A DNA stretch of 64,000 nt from a virus (IMGVR_UViG_3300046355_000213:1-64000), one strand, 5' to 3'; positions 2,494 to 7,577 are shown, counted from the first letter of the stretch. Notes: generated by a model not told the origin, from the sequence alone. Numbers and translations are program-made.

Positions 2494-2709
2494 ATGGCAG
2501 ATATCACAATGTGCAGAGATGAGTCTTGTACTAAAAGACTCTCCTGTTACAGGCACACAGCTCCAACAGATTGGTTTTGTCAGACAGTGTTTATGAACTC
2601 ACCTCGTGAAGGTGATAAGTGCAAATACTACTGGCCAACTGAGGAGTCAAAAAACGAGAATAATGAAAGTAATACGGCAGAACACCAAAACCCTGGTCAC
2701 CAGGGATAA
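2494..2709 (+). CDS. small Cys-rich phage protein
   Basis: MADITMC...C...CYR...C pattern. Confidence 0.65.
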   Translation: MADITMCRDESCTKRLSCYRHTAPTDWFCQTVFMNSPREGDKCKYYWPTEESKNENNESNTAEHQNPGHQG

Positions 2710-3514
2710 TGGTAGAAGCGCAGATGCTATCAGCCCAAACCTGATTTATGGGTGCGCAGGAGGCTGTATGAAGACTTATTGCTACGTAGCAAGATTTAAT
2801 AATGACAAAATTTATATCAATGAGAACAGGCAACAAATCCTGGGCTCTGTTAACAAATGGGTAGAGAAACAACCCTGGCCTAAGATGCCTAATCAGACGG
2901 ATGACAAATATTACACGGTAGACATTGGCTGCAGTACAGATATGGGCTTACACAGTAAGCATTATAAAATGCAAGAGATCTTTGACTTTTTTAATGTGCA
3001 TCCCAAACTGAAAAGCACCTTTGCTACCAAGTACCCTACCCGGTTTGATCCAAACCTGTACATGCTTTTTCGGGATAAGAACCGTATCAGGGTGTCACTA
3101 ATGCCTGAAAAGTATAGCAATATCCTGGAACCTAATACAGACAGTATTGAAGACCGGATTGGTGCTATAAAATATTTGCAACAGTATATGGAAGTGCATA
3201 TCAACTTCTCCCCTGTTATCTTTGAAAGAGACTGGAGACAGCAGTATCTCCATTTGTTTGAGTTGTTGTGGGAACAAGATATTGATGTACCCTGTGAGGT
3301 TATCATGCTTACTTACAATGAGAAACAAGCACTAAAGCAAGATGACTCTGTTATCAAGCATTTACTGTATAAACCTCATCTGCAAGAAGAAAAAGACTCC
3401 CAGTATGCACCAGGTAATCTGCGGTATCACGGGCCACTCAAAACTCAAATGGTAGAGCAGTTTAAAGAGATGCACAACAAGTACTTTAAAAGCCCTATCC
3501 GTTACATTTTTTAA
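2663..3514 (+). CDS. splB: spore photoproduct lyase family radical SAM protein
   Basis: GCAGGCMKTYCY cluster motif, DIGCSTD (4th Cys), FATKY, RIRVSL, EDRIGAI and HINFSPVI follow SplB motif order; ATG 2663 preferred to GTG 2606. Confidence 0.82.
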   Translation: MKVIRQNTKTLVTRDNGRSADAISPNLIYGCAGGCMKTYCYVARFNNDKIYINENRQQILGSVNKWVEKQPWPKMPNQTDDKYYTVDIGCSTDMGLHSKHYKMQEIFDFFNVHPKLKSTFATKYPTRFDPNLYMLFRDKNRIRVSLMPEKYSNILEPNTDSIEDRIGAIKYLQQYMEVHINFSPVIFERDWRQQYLHLFELLWEQDIDVPCEVIMLTYNEKQALKQDDSVIKHLLYKPHLQEEKDSQYAPGNLRYHGPLKTQMVEQFKEMHNKYFKSPIRYIF

Positions 3515-3524
3515 ACCAATTTTT

Positions 3525-4574
3525 ATGGAAAACCAATGGGTGCACACCAATAGTGTGTTCAGAATGAGAGAAGTCTCTCAACAATTAGATGCTCTTCCCA
3601 GGGCAGTGTACAAACTACAGGAAGACCGCTTTGGCTTTTTCCTTGCAGAAGTGGACAAAGAATTCAGTTTACCAGAAAAGATCTATGGTTTACAACGCCC
3701 ATTTATTAGCCGGGTAAAGAAATCATGGCAAGAAACAACGGGTAACATGGGTATCTTACTCAATGGTATCCGTGGTACGGGTAAAACAGTTACTGCAGAG
3801 GTTATTGCAAACGAAATGAACCTTCCGGTAATCATCATTGCTCAACAGTTTGAAGGCAACATGATTGACTTTATCAATGAGCTCAGTGATGACTGTGTAA
3901 TCTTCTTTGATGAGTATGACAAGATCTTTGAAAAGTACTCCAGCACATTACTTACGGTAATGGACGGTGTACTTAAAAGAGATACGCGTATCATGTTCCT
4001 GCTTACTACCAATGATGATCACCTCAATGATAACATGTATCAGAGACCCAGCCGTATCCGGTATATCAATACTTTTGGTAACCTAGACCCTGATGTTGTT
4101 ATAGAAGTGGTAGATGACTGTCTTACAGCAGTGCAGTACCGTGAAGAAACCATCCGGTTTATCTCTGAGCTAAGCATCATTACCATTGACCTGGTAAAAA
4201 GCATCATTCAGGAAGTGAATATCCACCAAGAGTCGCCTTATGTGTTCAGGGATGTCTTTAACATCACAGGTAACGAAAAGACCTATGAGGTTACTGAGAT
4301 TGATGAAAATGATAAGGAGACAGTGCTATTCCAAAGAGCTACCATAGATGACTTCATGAGTGTACCGTTCACATTTAGTGACATAGGCTCAAGTCTTTAT
4401 ATCAACGGGAGCTATATTGGAACCATCAAGGATATTATCAACCCTAGCACTGTTGACGTTGCTAAAAAAGACCATCTAAAAAATGATGAAGATGATGATA
4501 AAGTAGTACACCGTAAGCTGTCCTTTAAAGTACAATCAAGAAAACATTATTCATTTATTGAAAGAGGCTTATGA
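3525..4574 (+). CDS. AAA+ ATPase
   Basis: Walker A GIRGTGKT, Walker B IFFDE, RPSR arginine finger. Confidence 0.88.
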   Translation: MENQWVHTNSVFRMREVSQQLDALPRAVYKLQEDRFGFFLAEVDKEFSLPEKIYGLQRPFISRVKKSWQETTGNMGILLNGIRGTGKTVTAEVIANEMNLPVIIIAQQFEGNMIDFINELSDDCVIFFDEYDKIFEKYSSTLLTVMDGVLKRDTRIMFLLTTNDDHLNDNMYQRPSRIRYINTFGNLDPDVVIEVVDDCLTAVQYREETIRFISELSIITIDLVKSIIQEVNIHQESPYVFRDVFNITGNEKTYEVTEIDENDKETVLFQRATIDDFMSVPFTFSDIGSSLYINGSYIGTIKDIINPSTVDVAKKDHLKNDEDDDKVVHRKLSFKVQSRKHYSFIERGL

Positions 4575-5146
4575 TAACAGAACAGCAAGTACAAGATGCT
4601 AAGGATGAATTTATATCCCTTGTTAGCAGTAATTACAAGAAGAACGGCGGATCAGCTCCTGTGTTTGCCCTGGTGGTAGAACACGCTGATCAGACCATAC
4701 CTGGTATTTTGGTATTCCCTTTACCAGGAGAACTGTTTAGCAGTAAGGAGCATAAGCAACTGCTGATAGACAAAGTATTGCCTGATGTAGCAAAACAGGT
4801 TGTACAAGAGCAGGGGTATAAACCTCTCGCTACTTGTTTTATGATGGAAGCTAACATGTGGATCAAGCAAAAGCAAAAGGATGAAGAAATTACAGAAGAA
4901 GAGATCTCTGACATCCGTAATCAAGGAGCTCCCACAGACATCCTCATGTTCAGCTTTGAAGACAAGTACAGTGAAAGCATGACCATCTTTGAGGTGGAGC
5001 AGAAAAGCTTTGTTACACCTGAAGGTGAGATCACCAAGGAGACAGAACTTATTGCCCGACCAGAGCTAGGTATGGATGACAACAATCATGTTGTTATGAA
5101 AGGGTTGTTTACAGGGTTGTTTAAGATATTTTGGAAAGCGGAATAA
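4571..5146 (+). CDS. hypothetical protein
   Basis: 191-aa ORF, ATGA overlap. Confidence 0.75.
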   Translation: MITEQQVQDAKDEFISLVSSNYKKNGGSAPVFALVVEHADQTIPGILVFPLPGELFSSKEHKQLLIDKVLPDVAKQVVQEQGYKPLATCFMMEANMWIKQKQKDEEITEEEISDIRNQGAPTDILMFSFEDKYSESMTIFEVEQKSFVTPEGEITKETELIARPELGMDDNNHVVMKGLFTGLFKIFWKAE

Positions 5147-6011
5147 TCTGAGGTAACACAGAAGGCTTTGAACGTAGCTTGGTGTAATGATCCAAGACAG
5201 TTCTGGCTTTTCTATGTCCCATCAGGTAAGCCAGTGATAGAATATCTATATTTTGCTCTACCGCTATAGTACCAAAGGTATGTCTACAAGCGTACAAATC
5301 CCGTTCAGGAATATTGAGCTTAGCTAAGACAGGCTTAAGTATTCGCTTTTGAAACTTGTTGTCATCTATGGGGTTGTTGAAGATACTGGTAAATACAAAA
5401 TCAGTAGCTTTTTTCTTATCACAAATAGGCTTAAGGATCTCTTCCAGGCCAAGTGATAAGGGAATATACCGGTTACCTGAAGCAGTCTTAGGACTTTTAA
5501 GGTATCTTTTACCTTCATAGGTACGTGCATAGTTTTTACAAATGTAAATACGCCTGTTGGTAAAGTCTACCATGTTACATTTGAGTGCAACTGCTTCGCC
5601 ATTACGGCAGCCTGACTGTATAAGGAACATCAGAAAAGGATAGTAATACTTCCTCAATCTGGGCACTTGCTCAAAGTGAGCTATCAGTGACAGAAGTTCG
5701 TCATCAGTATAAGGTTGTCTCTTGGAGTTAACTTCACTGTTACGTCTTCTCTTGCACTCATCTAGTGGGTCAGACTTTATGTACTTCATTTTGAGACACC
5801 ACTTGATGAACCTCTTAAGAATAGCCAGCCTGTCATTATATGTGACTGGGCCAAGTTTCTTATCCCGGTTAAGAAAATAACCAAGTTCATCAAGGTCTTT
5901 AATTTTCCAGCGCGCTAGCATGCGCTCAGTTGAAGTAACGTTGTGAGGTACATGTAAACCGTAAACTAAGTCTCTCCATTTGATGTAAGCATTCATTGCA
6001 AGGACCTTCAT
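5121..6011 (-). CDS. int: tyrosine recombinase/integrase
   Basis: SGCRNGE (R), PKT (K), YACRHTF (H replaced by Y in HxxR), MGH, DHY (Tyr); no obvious arm-binding N-terminal domain. Confidence 0.9.
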   Translation of the reverse strand: MKVLAMNAYIKWRDLVYGLHVPHNVTSTERMLARWKIKDLDELGYFLNRDKKLGPVTYNDRLAILKRFIKWCLKMKYIKSDPLDECKRRRNSEVNSKRQPYTDDELLSLIAHFEQVPRLRKYYYPFLMFLIQSGCRNGEAVALKCNMVDFTNRRIYICKNYARTYEGKRYLKSPKTASGNRYIPLSLGLEEILKPICDKKKATDFVFTSIFNNPIDDNKFQKRILKPVLAKLNIPERDLYACRHTFGTIAVEQNIDILSLAYLMGHRKARTVLDHYTKLRSKPSVLPQIIPLSKIS

Positions 6012-6049
6012 AACAAGTTGATTTATACTGAGTTATGTAGGCTGATTTG

Positions 6050-6093
6050 TACTCTGTCAAAGTAATGCTCTAAACCAACTGAGCTAACAGTCC
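6050..6093 (-). tRNA. 5' half of tRNA-Val(GAC); incomplete, candidate attP core
   Basis: Minus strand GGACTGT-TA-GCTC-AGTTGGTTTA-GAGC-A-TTACT-TTGACAG-AGTA gives acceptor 5' strand, D arm and anticodon arm; no T arm or 3' acceptor follows. Confidence 0.8.
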
Positions 6094-6107
6094 AGCCTAC
6101 GTTTCAG

Positions 6108-6139
6108 CGAATTTATGCACTAAGTGTGCTTTTGCCAAA
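6108..6139 (-). promoter_or_regulatory. Bacteroidota sigma70-type promoter upstream of tRNA half/int
   Basis: TTTG (6139-6136), 20-nt spacer, TAAATTCG (6115-6108) versus consensus TTTG-N19-21-TAnnTTTG. Confidence 0.6.
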
Positions 6140-6174
6140 ATTAAGCTAATTTACTGTAAATCAACGGTTGCAAA

Positions 6175-6190
6175 ATTGCAATATTGCAAT
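6175..6190. promoter_or_regulatory. perfect 16-bp palindrome, candidate operator
   Basis: ATTGCAATATTGCAAT between divergent int and HTH genes. Confidence 0.45.
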
Positions 6191-6216
6191 ATCAAAAAGA
6201 GTAGGGGACAGTATTA

Positions 6217-6251
6217 TTTGTATACTTTATCTCAAAATTTGTATAGCTTTG
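6217..6251 (+). promoter_or_regulatory. Bacteroidota-type promoter
   Basis: TAGCTTTG -7 box at 6244-6251; TTTG at 6217-6220 (spacer of 23 is somewhat long). Confidence 0.5.
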
Positions 6252-6271
6252 TGTAAACTAATGGTTGAAGT

Positions 6272-6607
6272 ATGGCAAAATTAAGCAAGCAGCAATTAAA
6301 CGAAATGAAGCAGATGATCAGTAAAGGTATAGGCCCTGAAGACATCTCTAATCACTTTAATGTAGCTATCTCAAATGTGCACTACTACAAAGCCAAGTTC
6401 AAAAAAGACGGGCTGGAAGTGCCTAATTTGAAAGGCAGGAGACCTACCGGATCTGTACAACAACCTGCTATTCCCGCTATCACTGAAACCAATGTTCAGG
6501 TAACTGGACAGGACATGCGGGTCGTGGTCAATGGCGTACCGGTAACCATACATGGTAGTGCCAAAAATGTGACCATCAGTAACGGTTCACTGCAAGTGGA
6601 CTTTTAG
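6272..6607 (+). CDS. HTH DNA-binding protein
   Basis: GIGPEDISNHFNVAISNVHYY HTH; C-terminal beta domain. Confidence 0.75.
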   Translation: MAKLSKQQLNEMKQMISKGIGPEDISNHFNVAISNVHYYKAKFKKDGLEVPNLKGRRPTGSVQQPAIPAITETNVQVTGQDMRVVVNGVPVTIHGSAKNVTISNGSLQVDF

Positions 6608-6629
6608 TAAGAACAATTAATTACACTGC

Positions 6630-6656
6630 AGGGGGTAGAAAGTCTATCCCCTTTTT
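6630..6656 (+). terminator. rho-independent terminator
   Basis: AGGGGGTAGA-AAG-TCTATCCCCT followed by T run. Confidence 0.75.
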
Positions 6657-6678
6657 CATTTTATCCCCCCAATGTTCT

Positions 6679-7035
6679 ATGAACCAGAAAAGAACAAGAG
6701 TTGTGTTGCCTCAGGCTACAAAAGACATGATTGTAAACCTGTTAAACTCAGGCTTAGGCCCTAGTGCAGTAGTAAAAGCTATGCCAGGTATCAAAGTAGG
6801 TCAAGTATGGCCGTTCAGCAGTAAAATGTACCGTGATTCCAAGGTGCGGCAGGCCCCAACAGCAGGAAAAACTACTACGACTGATGCTGCAGTAAAAAAA
6901 GAGGCTACTGTAGTTAAGGCAGTAGTAAAAGCTACTGAAACAATCTGCTATTCTGTAGACGGTGTAGACATTATTTTGTCTAAGAAGCCTAACACAGTCA
7001 CTATTGCAGACAACGTTATCTCATTCAAATTTTAA
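6679..7035 (+). CDS. putative HTH protein, paralogue-like to 6272..6607
   Basis: SGLGPSAVVKAMPGIKVGQV HTH-like region and similar C-terminal beta domain. Confidence 0.7.
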   Translation: MNQKRTRVVLPQATKDMIVNLLNSGLGPSAVVKAMPGIKVGQVWPFSSKMYRDSKVRQAPTAGKTTTTDAAVKKEATVVKAVVKATETICYSVDGVDIILSKKPNTVTIADNVISFKF

Positions 7036-7037
7036 GT

Positions 7038-7211
7038 ATGGCCAACATTATTCAGGAGTTAATTTGTAAAGGTCCTCTTGAAGAAGTCAGAGACCTAAAA
7101 GCCAAAGTGTTGAAGTTAGAAGACAAGTTGCAGAAAAAGCAACACGACATCAACAAGACAAATGCCTTTTATAAGAACAAAATCAGAGAGTTAAAGGCAG
7201 CTAAGCGTTAG
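7038..7211 (+). CDS. small coiled-coil protein (57 aa)
   Basis: Manually read MANIIQELICKGPLEEVRDLKAKVLKLEDKLQKK... Confidence 0.6.
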   Translation: MANIIQELICKGPLEEVRDLKAKVLKLEDKLQKKQHDINKTNAFYKNKIRELKAAKR

Positions 7212-7241
7212 TCTATAGCGCTATAATCCACAGTACCGGTG

Positions 7242-7279
7242 TTGTAGAGTTTGTTGGTAAGTTGTAGAGGTTATATTTG
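7242..7279 (+). promoter_or_regulatory. Bacteroidota-type promoter with two TTGTAGA boxes
   Basis: TTTG 7250-7253, 18-nt spacer, TATATTTG 7272-7279; TTGTAGA at 7242 and 7262. Confidence 0.65.
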
Positions 7280-7301
7280 TATAACCGTACTATGATTACC
7301 C

Positions 7302-7577
7302 ATGCTTTATCAACTCCCCAATGGCCGTGTAATAGAAATGTCAACAGAGCAATTCTGTGACATGACTGATGATGACTTCGAGTATCTCATTGCCAATAAT
7401 TTTGGTGAAGAAGTAGAAGATCCATTCTTTGGCTCCGTGTTAACCGGTAGTAAGTCTAAATCCATACTGGACACTTTTCCAGATGTACCTGCAGAGGTAA
7501 TGAAAGACTTGACCCAGATCACAGACCAGGAAAAGCTCCTGAATCCTGACATAGACTACAACAGTCAGGAAGACTAA
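7302..7577 (+). CDS. acidic hypothetical protein
   Basis: MLYQLPNGRVI... ORF directly downstream of promoter. Confidence 0.8.
   Translation: MLYQLPNGRVIEMSTEQFCDMTDDDFEYLIANNFGEEVEDPFFGSVLTGSKSKSILDTFPDVPAEVMKDLTQITDQEKLLNPDIDYNSQED

Follow-up and report, generated by a model that had tools for sequence, protein, structure and literature searches.

Why would a large phage carry the front half of a host tRNA gene immediately ahead of its integrase gene? The question is raised by a stretch of viral DNA of 64,000 nucleotides (nt), IMGVR_UViG_3300046355_000213:1-64000 (hereafter, the window), which covers the initial 64 kb of a virus record that is 125,034 bp long, is classed as linear and has a completeness estimate of 100%. 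On the minus strand of the window, the 5' 44 nt of a tRNA-Val(GAC) gene lie between a promoter-like region and int, a gene coding for a tyrosine recombinase (Table 1). In this study, we analyzed this locus computationally, together with related phage contigs and the genomes of presumptive hosts. Our results make it probable that positions 6139..5121 (minus strand) constitute a phage integration module with a mirror-image phage attachment site (attP), in which the phage carries the 5' part of tRNA-Val.

A host tRNA-Val half precedes an integrase gene

Direct reading of the sequence places G1 of the half-tRNA at 6093, A42 at 6050 and the anticodon GAC at 6058..6056 (minus strand), and the coordinates that an original prediction, made from the sequence alone, had given for the half-tRNA, the spacer, int and the promoter motif were all correct. 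ARAGORN called no tRNA in the window, and the Rfam tRNA model aligned to 6038-6093(-) with its T arm deleted and with a score of 21.2 bits, below the gathering score of 29 (expect value, E, 0.053). Hence, 6093..6050 is a tRNA fragment and not a tRNA gene. The intron mode of ARAGORN returned 27 additional calls, which we disregarded because the introns were implausible.

The source of the fragment was sought by scanning a 22-nt piece of its anticodon arm, a pattern that also matches intact tRNAs, against genomes of all species. This piece occurs in at least 120 genome contigs, nearly all of them from Chitinophagaceae or other Chitinophagales. The matches listed, at least 121, comprise 116 full tRNA-Val(GAC) genes, two genes cut by the end of the locus, two with an inserted palindromic element and one chance match in a Pseudoalteromonas contig. 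The near-exact host counterpart anticipated by the original prediction proved to be an exact one: starting from G1, the 44-mer of the window is identical over 44/44 nt to 15 of the 116 full genes among the matches listed, and nearly all of these 15 listed carriers are Chitinophagaceae or Chitinophagales. Past the 44-mer, the host genes read GGGGTC followed by a normal T arm, and the phage sequence diverges. This identity is far beyond chance, and the tRNA-Val match points to Chitinophagaceae as the likely host. In a separate observation, two Bacteroidota tRNA-Val genes (L021, about 5050-5160, and L119, about 650-800) are broken by the same short palindromic insert, CCCGATAGCTATCGGGA, which sits in the D arm of one gene and in the T arm of the other.

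The int gene starts with an ATG at 6011 (minus strand), and its product matches PF00589 (E 3.4e-19, 69.7 bits against a cut-off of 27.1) and phrog_1 (E 8.1e-40). Residues R136, K172, R243, H266 and Y276, which from their motif positions we take to be the catalytic ones, are unchanged across 21 close Int homologues. A 400-amino acid (aa) relative aligns with the phage protein from its residue 130 onwards, which lies opposite residue 30 of the phage protein; residues 11-73 of this relative correspond to PF12167 (29.5 bits). No N-terminal domain match that could represent an arm-DNA-binding domain was found in Int, and the PF12167 counterpart is absent from the phage proteins, which are 283-300 aa long.

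Table 1. Coordinates of the features discussed, counted from the first nucleotide of the window
Feature	Position	Strand	Basis or remark
int, 296-aa tyrosine recombinase without arm-binding domain	5121..6011	minus	PF00589, phrog_1
Spacer, 38 nt, which includes the 3' strand of P1 and another hairpin region	6049..6012	minus	length comparison; pair I2
P1 3' strand, CAGCCTAC	6044..6037	minus	pair I6
First 44 nt of tRNA-Val(GAC), covering the 5' acceptor strand, the D arm and the anticodon arm as far as position 42; putative identity block of attP	6093..6050	minus	direct reading, identity to host tRNA-Val, Rfam
Anticodon loop TTGACAG, proposed strand-exchange region	6054..6060	minus	inference from att geometry
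P1 5' strand, GTAGGCTG, last base = G1	6100..6093	minus	pair I6
-7-like box, TAAATTCG, within a conserved block ending in TTCGCTGAAAC	6115..6108	minus	motif reading, relatives
-33-like TTTG of a putative Bacteroidota-type promoter	6139..6136	minus	motif reading
Overlapping TTGCAA-type palindromes, ATTGCAAT twice abutting	6168..6192	.	pairs I1, I3, I4; between the int-side promoter and the divergent helix-turn-helix gene
Divergent 111-aa protein with N-terminal three-helix helix-turn-helix	6272..6607	plus	adjoins the site in relatives too
Giant open reading frame, 1928 aa	40335-46121	minus	no PHROGs match
Giant open reading frame, 4560 aa	46140-59822	minus	C-terminus Dda-like helicase, phrog_325, E 1.1e-71; rest without PHROGs match

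The module is conserved in related phages and follows host alleles

Scans with exact patterns and with an Int profile identified eight other contigs that carry the module, four from IMG/VR (L006, L007, L148 and L149) and four from metagenomes (L130-L133). A search of IMG/VR with the single Int protein sequence found no relatives; L148 and L149 came from an alignment-based search. These two contigs are identical in this region, so that together with the window there are eight distinct sequences, which fall into five clusters. The eight contigs share a common order of leader block, half-tRNA, spacer and int, with Int proteins 53-72% identical to that of the window. In every contig long enough to tell, the neighbouring genes on both sides are homologous to those of the window. 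Hence, all the relatives show the arrangement of the free phage, that is, the attP form. The same holds for the window. In the 128,946-bp metagenome contig L132, the homologues of the genes near 760 run directly into those of the genes near 123,100, which means that the ends of the phage record are contiguous and that the int/half-tRNA site has phage genes on either side, as an attP should.

Conservation within the module is uneven. In comparisons of five cluster representatives, identity reaches 95-100% in the half-tRNA and averages 46% in the 7-nt leader, 50% in the spacer and 38% in the upstream DNA. Two lengths are nevertheless constant: that of the leader, always 7 nt between a conserved GCTGAAAC-type block and G1, and the distance from T41 to the ATG of int, which is 39 nt in 8/8 sequences (spacer sequences 42-67% identical). 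Identity with host genes stops at position 42 in seven sequences and at position 41 in L148. Besides, the GTTATG at the start of int is conserved, and every spacer has a second hairpin of its own.

The sole variation in the half-tRNA concerns the acceptor strand: six sequences have GGACTGT there, and L007 and L148 have GGATCGT. Both versions exist as host alleles, in 16/116 and 2/116 of the tRNA-Val genes among the matches listed, respectively. Such tracking of host alleles is to be expected if the phage must rebuild an acceptor stem with the 3' strand of the host gene.

Att sites of related chromosomal integrases suggest a mirror-image design

Chromosomal relatives of Int (33-38% identity, 366-421 aa) are found in 11 of 401 sampled genomes of the host family. 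A full tRNA gene lies directly upstream and on the same strand in seven of the 11 cases, two of them Ala-GGC and five Pro; the remaining four have no tRNA within their 1.5-kb flanks. All five relatives tested have a perfect direct repeat of the 3' part of the tRNA. The repeat covers tRNA positions 21-75 in G400 (8.2 kb downstream) and in G266 (on another contig), positions 27-75 in G133 (4.4 kb downstream), positions 33-75 in G309 (20.6 kb downstream) and positions 29-75 in G046 (on another contig). These chromosomal relatives are ordinary 3'-type islands. One of their loci shows an additional peculiarity: upstream of the tRNA-Ala preceding the Int relative, L135 862-1005 (G133 contig 2) contains two tandem truncated tRNA-like copies with a 72-nt period, which have positions 1-27 as in tRNA-Ala, a different anticodon arm and no T arm.

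The repeats of the relatives and the phage block, which spans positions 1-41/42, overlap at positions 33-41 only, that is, the anticodon loop and three stem bases. Because the overlap is limited to these positions, the phage site is best read as a mirror-image, anticodon-loop attP: the phage combines the 5' part with the core, and its relatives combine the core with the 3' part. The overlap also agrees with an anticodon-centred class of att sites. Either way, int follows the tRNA promoter and is oriented like it.

According to this reading, the identity block of attP would be the first 44 nt of the tRNA-Val(GAC) gene of the host, with a phage promoter-like region before it and the gene of an arm-less integrase 38 nt after it. 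Strand exchange by Int would take place in or beside the anticodon loop of the tRNA-Val gene in a Chitinophagaceae host. Of the resulting junctions, one would comprise the host promoter, the host 5' part, the spacer and int, and the other the phage promoter, the phage 5' part and the host 3' part, thus restoring an intact tRNA-Val. Since the phage acceptor strand would then pair with the host 3' strand, it would have to match the host allele.

A closing helix brackets the half-tRNA

The two strands of a helix, P1, flank the half-tRNA. In the window, they form pair I6, with 8 nt that are 100% complementary and arms 48 nt apart. The flanks of the half-tRNA pair in 8/8 sequences despite their differing sequence. 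L007, for example, pairs CACGTTG with CAACGTG, and L148 pairs AACACGCC with GGTGTGTT. Moreover, P1 of L006, L131 and L148 includes G-T pairs, which can form a wobble on the int-sense strand only. As the register of P1 shifts by up to 3 nt between clusters, we assessed the pairing by permutation and shuffle tests and not by column-wise covariation counts. Energies of the cognate flank duplexes range from -8.4 to -15.8 kcal/mol. Their sum for the five cluster representatives is -72.0 against a permutation mean of -41.2, and only the identity permutation (1/120) is as low. Likewise, shuffled 3' flanks match the observed energy in just 0-7 of 1000 trials. P1 is part of the minimum-energy fold of the short RNA in 8/8 sequences, with modest z-scores of -0.9 to -2.4, and is not always part of that fold in longer RNAs that include the start of int. 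In the window and in L006, an alternative partner of the P1 3' strand is the region where int starts (pair I2, 6005-6014 with 6032-6041 in the window).

Integration would send the two strands of P1 to opposite ends of a 125-kb prophage, so that the helix could form only in the unintegrated phage. There, the int mRNA would begin with a tRNA-like domain that lacks a T arm, formed by the half-tRNA and closed by P1. Conceivably, although this seems rather unlikely to us, P1 physically senses whether the phage is integrated and adjusts the output of Int accordingly, for instance by protection or processing of the 5' end. An arm-less integrase would thereby gain directionality in a temperate, Chitinophagaceae-infecting lineage with a distant relationship to crAss-like phages. 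Masking of the start codon after loss of P1 was rejected as a general mechanism, since in 8/8 sequences the AUG region was equally likely to be unpaired with the phage leader, with no leader and with real host leaders (largest difference 0.21 vs 0.12 vs 0.18, for the window). We found no description of a helix closing a half-tRNA in the literature searched, a search that extended neither to supplements nor to two key older papers.

The putative promoter, integrated copies and alternative explanations

Several results weigh against an active integration module, and they concern the promoter, lysogeny control and integrated copies. The promoter consensus that we used for the TTTG and the -7-like box is presumably the one valid in Bacteroidota. 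A TTTG is found 41-45 nt upstream of G1 in 8/8 related sequences, and a TAnnTTnG box ends 14 nt before G1 in 5/8. No TAnnTTnG match exists at that position in L006, L131 and L148, and the box lacks the consensus T in the five sequences that have it, so that all eight depart from the consensus. In the window, TTTG-N18-22-TANNTTNG is not enriched (seven occurrences vs 5.15 expected; 27 of 100 shuffles reach seven). For comparison, 58 TAnnTTTG boxes were found among 114 host tRNA-Val genes from the matches listed, ending 7-10 nt before G1 in 41/58 and 6-12 nt before it in 47/58. A conserved leader block and a TTTG accompany the half-tRNA in all eight sequences, but the Bacteroidota promoter motif of the original prediction is not, by itself, above chance. 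From its position and conservation, the region upstream of the half-tRNA may nonetheless provide promoter activity.

Neither PHROGs nor Pfam assigned any of the 26 neighbouring proteins to a family of repressors, antirepressors or excisionases. Close homologues of Int, 26 in number, are encoded on contigs of at most 128.5 kb, that is, of phage size. A half-site pattern with a non-host base after the half matched in one of the 401 host-family genomes, at a full tRNA with A43, so that none of the 401 has a half-site, and the terminase was present in one of these genomes, on a 2.4-kb contig. In metagenomes, a half-site-specific pattern retrieved four contigs, all of them in attP form with the phage leader. 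None of the 114 host tRNA-Val genes from the matches listed has a phage-type leader, and no IMG/VR contig has a host-type full tRNA-Val. Contigs of four freshwater runs (X1, X5, X6 and X7) contained attP and separate host tRNA genes and no host-phage joints, and contigs can miss rare forms. Thus, the integrated relatives with attL/attR at tRNA-Val that the original prediction envisaged did not turn up in the 401 genomes, the metagenome scan, IMG/VR or the four runs. Its proposal of a promoter-swap integration at the anticodon arm is backed by the conservation of the module in eight contigs, by the tracking of host alleles and by the att blocks of the relatives, but not by any attL or attR.

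The same negative searches, the lack of recognisable lysogeny control genes and the confinement of close Int homologues to phage-sized contigs would suit a relic, in which an ancestor integrated at tRNA-Val, the present members are strictly lytic and Int is kept for another task, such as resolving genome multimers at the palindromic core of the anticodon arm. We consider this improbable. A resolution site needs the core only, so that positions 1-20 should drift like the flanks, which are 38-50% identical; instead, these positions are conserved and switch only between host alleles. A function at the RNA level, with the half-tRNA closed by P1 as a tRNA-like domain, is another possible explanation. 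Such a domain could be an element of the 5' untranslated region that affects stability or processing of the int mRNA, or a mimic of tRNA-Val, and it could coexist with an attP. The pairing of the flanks in all eight sequences, the outcome of the permutations, the G-U pairs confined to the int-sense strand, the presence of P1 in every short-RNA minimum-energy fold and the T-armless Rfam alignment all speak for it. It leaves unexplained why an unpaired acceptor strand is identical to host alleles, which would not be expected to be tracked in an RNA, and why the element keeps a constant place 38-39 nt ahead of int, whose product has relatives that use tRNA sites. Moreover, the modest z-scores and the inconstant presence of P1 in the folds of longer RNAs do not favor it, and we regard it as unlikely to be the explanation of the locus.

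In favor of a phage tRNA-Val gene broken by the insertion of an int element or by a deletion, the phage has its own cluster of tRNA genes. It has eight of them, at 111.4-112.3 kb and 120.1 kb, and Val is not among them. The disrupted phage tRNA that the original prediction considered as an alternative would have its 3' half elsewhere, but this half is nowhere in the 125-kb genome (the longest match to a host 3' half is 11 nt), and neither a T-arm nor an acceptor motif that would match turned up. In addition, the 3' end of int overlaps the convergent gene at 4571-5146, which leaves no room for an inserted element, and the break point is identical in five diverged clusters. The sequence equals host tRNAs, and a phage-encoded tRNA-Val in virus contig L128 differs from it. 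A broken gene is hence hardly credible. Taken together, integration at the anticodon loop of a host tRNA-Val is the reading that we favor, and the phage would then be temperate.

Neighbouring genes and affiliation of the phage

The palindromes located upstream of the promoter-like region are a possible operator. By eye, relatives have other palindromes near their -33 elements. The divergent 111-aa protein is a candidate regulator or directionality factor. Its match to HTH_7 (E 0.02) is under the cut-off, and its AlphaFold2 model, with a predicted local distance difference test score (pLDDT) of 65.9, resembles generic helix-turn-helix folds at E >= 0.28, with none at E <= 0.001. The protein at 6272-6607 and that at 6679-7035 are small adjacent paralogues (17% identity) with an N-terminal helix-turn-helix, a linker and a C-terminal beta domain, and without a family match. 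Just past int lie the genes of a protein resembling spore photoproduct lyase (2606-3514; PF20903, E 2.9e-12) and of an AAA ATPase (3525-4574); both are kept in relatives.

The phage record has a G+C content of 43% and no terminal repeat. Its DNA was found in freshwater metagenomes (17 rows from 15 studies, four of them possibly the source). A DNA similarity search with 4500-7500 against catalogued phages gave no match. The terminase, portal and capsid proteins correspond to phrog_6681, phrog_6547 and phrog_11589, respectively. In a tblastn search, the terminase matched 141 phage records, every one at less than 60% identity. The best matches were uncultured crAss-like phages (22-26%), followed by Flavobacterium FpV4-type and Cellulophaga phages. 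For the capsid protein, a Leptolyngbya phage without classification came first, with 27% identity across 99% of the query, and a literature search found no paper on Lbo-JY46. With such low terminase identities and with a Leptolyngbya phage as best capsid match, the crAss-like label of the original prediction would apply only loosely, in a distant sense. PHROGs searches for giant proteins of the virion RNA-polymerase type in the 4560- and 1928-aa open reading frames gave only the Dda-like helicase.

Among the tRNA genes of the phage, a tRNA-Pro(AGG) at 120098-120195 is 98 nt long and scores just 34.3 bits. Beside the tRNA cluster, the minus strand at 112,300-112,600 of the genome (L005 about 2300-2600) has two T-arm-like sequences that neither ARAGORN nor Rfam at its gathering score calls; they may be degenerate or unusual tRNA genes.

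Relation to known systems and significance

Tyrosine integrases that target tRNA genes reportedly include an anticodon-loop class of att sites, said to have been defined by Williams in 2002. The module shares with this class a tyrosine integrase adjoining an attP with a tRNA fragment, and an identity block that spans both strands of the anticodon stem. It differs in direction: starting in the anticodon arm, the phage block extends to the 5' rather than the 3' end of the tRNA, which means that the element must also supply a promoter.

As the original prediction had assumed, 3' fragments prevail at tRNA att sites: Table 1 of the Islander paper (PMC4383910) counts 3760 islands with a 3' fragment and 159 with a 5' fragment out of 3919, and assigns 2083 of the 3919 to an anticodon-centred class ("anticodon centered attP site A"). 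Recombination of the 5'-distal part of tRNAs is described in a passage of PMC6563490 as "considerably less frequent" than that of the 3' part, yet it is documented, and archaeal cases are listed there. Reverse-orientation elements of this kind go back to Zhao and Williams 2002, as cited in PMC6563490 and PMC1635311. Like them, the phage module would recombine the 5'-distal part of the tRNA and regenerate that part. They are known as integrated islands or archaeal proviruses, whereas the phage module is seen as free attP only, and in a 125-kb phage with a distant relationship to crAss-like phages; its integrase is devoid of an arm-binding domain, and a covarying helix closes the fragment. A literature search for wording on a 5'-half attP returned nothing, probably because the prime sign is unsearchable. 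Therefore, a 5'-fragment att site is a known, rare kind, and what is new here is the phage lineage, the host group, the arm-less integrase and the closing helix.

The statement of the original prediction that cultured crAss-like phages are not known to integrate agrees with the description of the cultured crAss001 as incapable of lysogeny (PMC8375218), but putative prophages have been reported: PMC11054128 mentions repressor/antirepressor genes and incomplete Parabacteroides prophages in the epsilon group, and the pig-gut prophages of PMC12454387 include 12 crAss-like ones. The main text of Yutin 2021 does not mention an integrase, and its supplements may list some. Like the phages that hint at lysogeny, ours is large, has terminase, portal and capsid relatives that include crAss-like phages, and probably infects a Bacteroidota host. 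Unlike them, it comes from freshwater, its presumptive host belongs to Chitinophagaceae, and the evidence consists of Int and attP and not of repressor genes.

If the site works, it would provide a host prediction for an uncultured 125-kb freshwater phage, namely Chitinophagaceae with the GGACTGT allele of tRNA-Val(GAC). Together with the chromosomal islands, it would also show that a single integrase family naturally uses two att designs that mirror each other, and this pairing would place the crossover in the anticodon loop. The helix with covarying strands that closes the half-tRNA would be an extra feature that the unintegrated form alone can make. Finally, a lineage related to crAss-like phages, a group described as non-lysogenic as far as its cultured members are concerned, would have a testable lysogeny module made up of Int, attP and a predicted attB.

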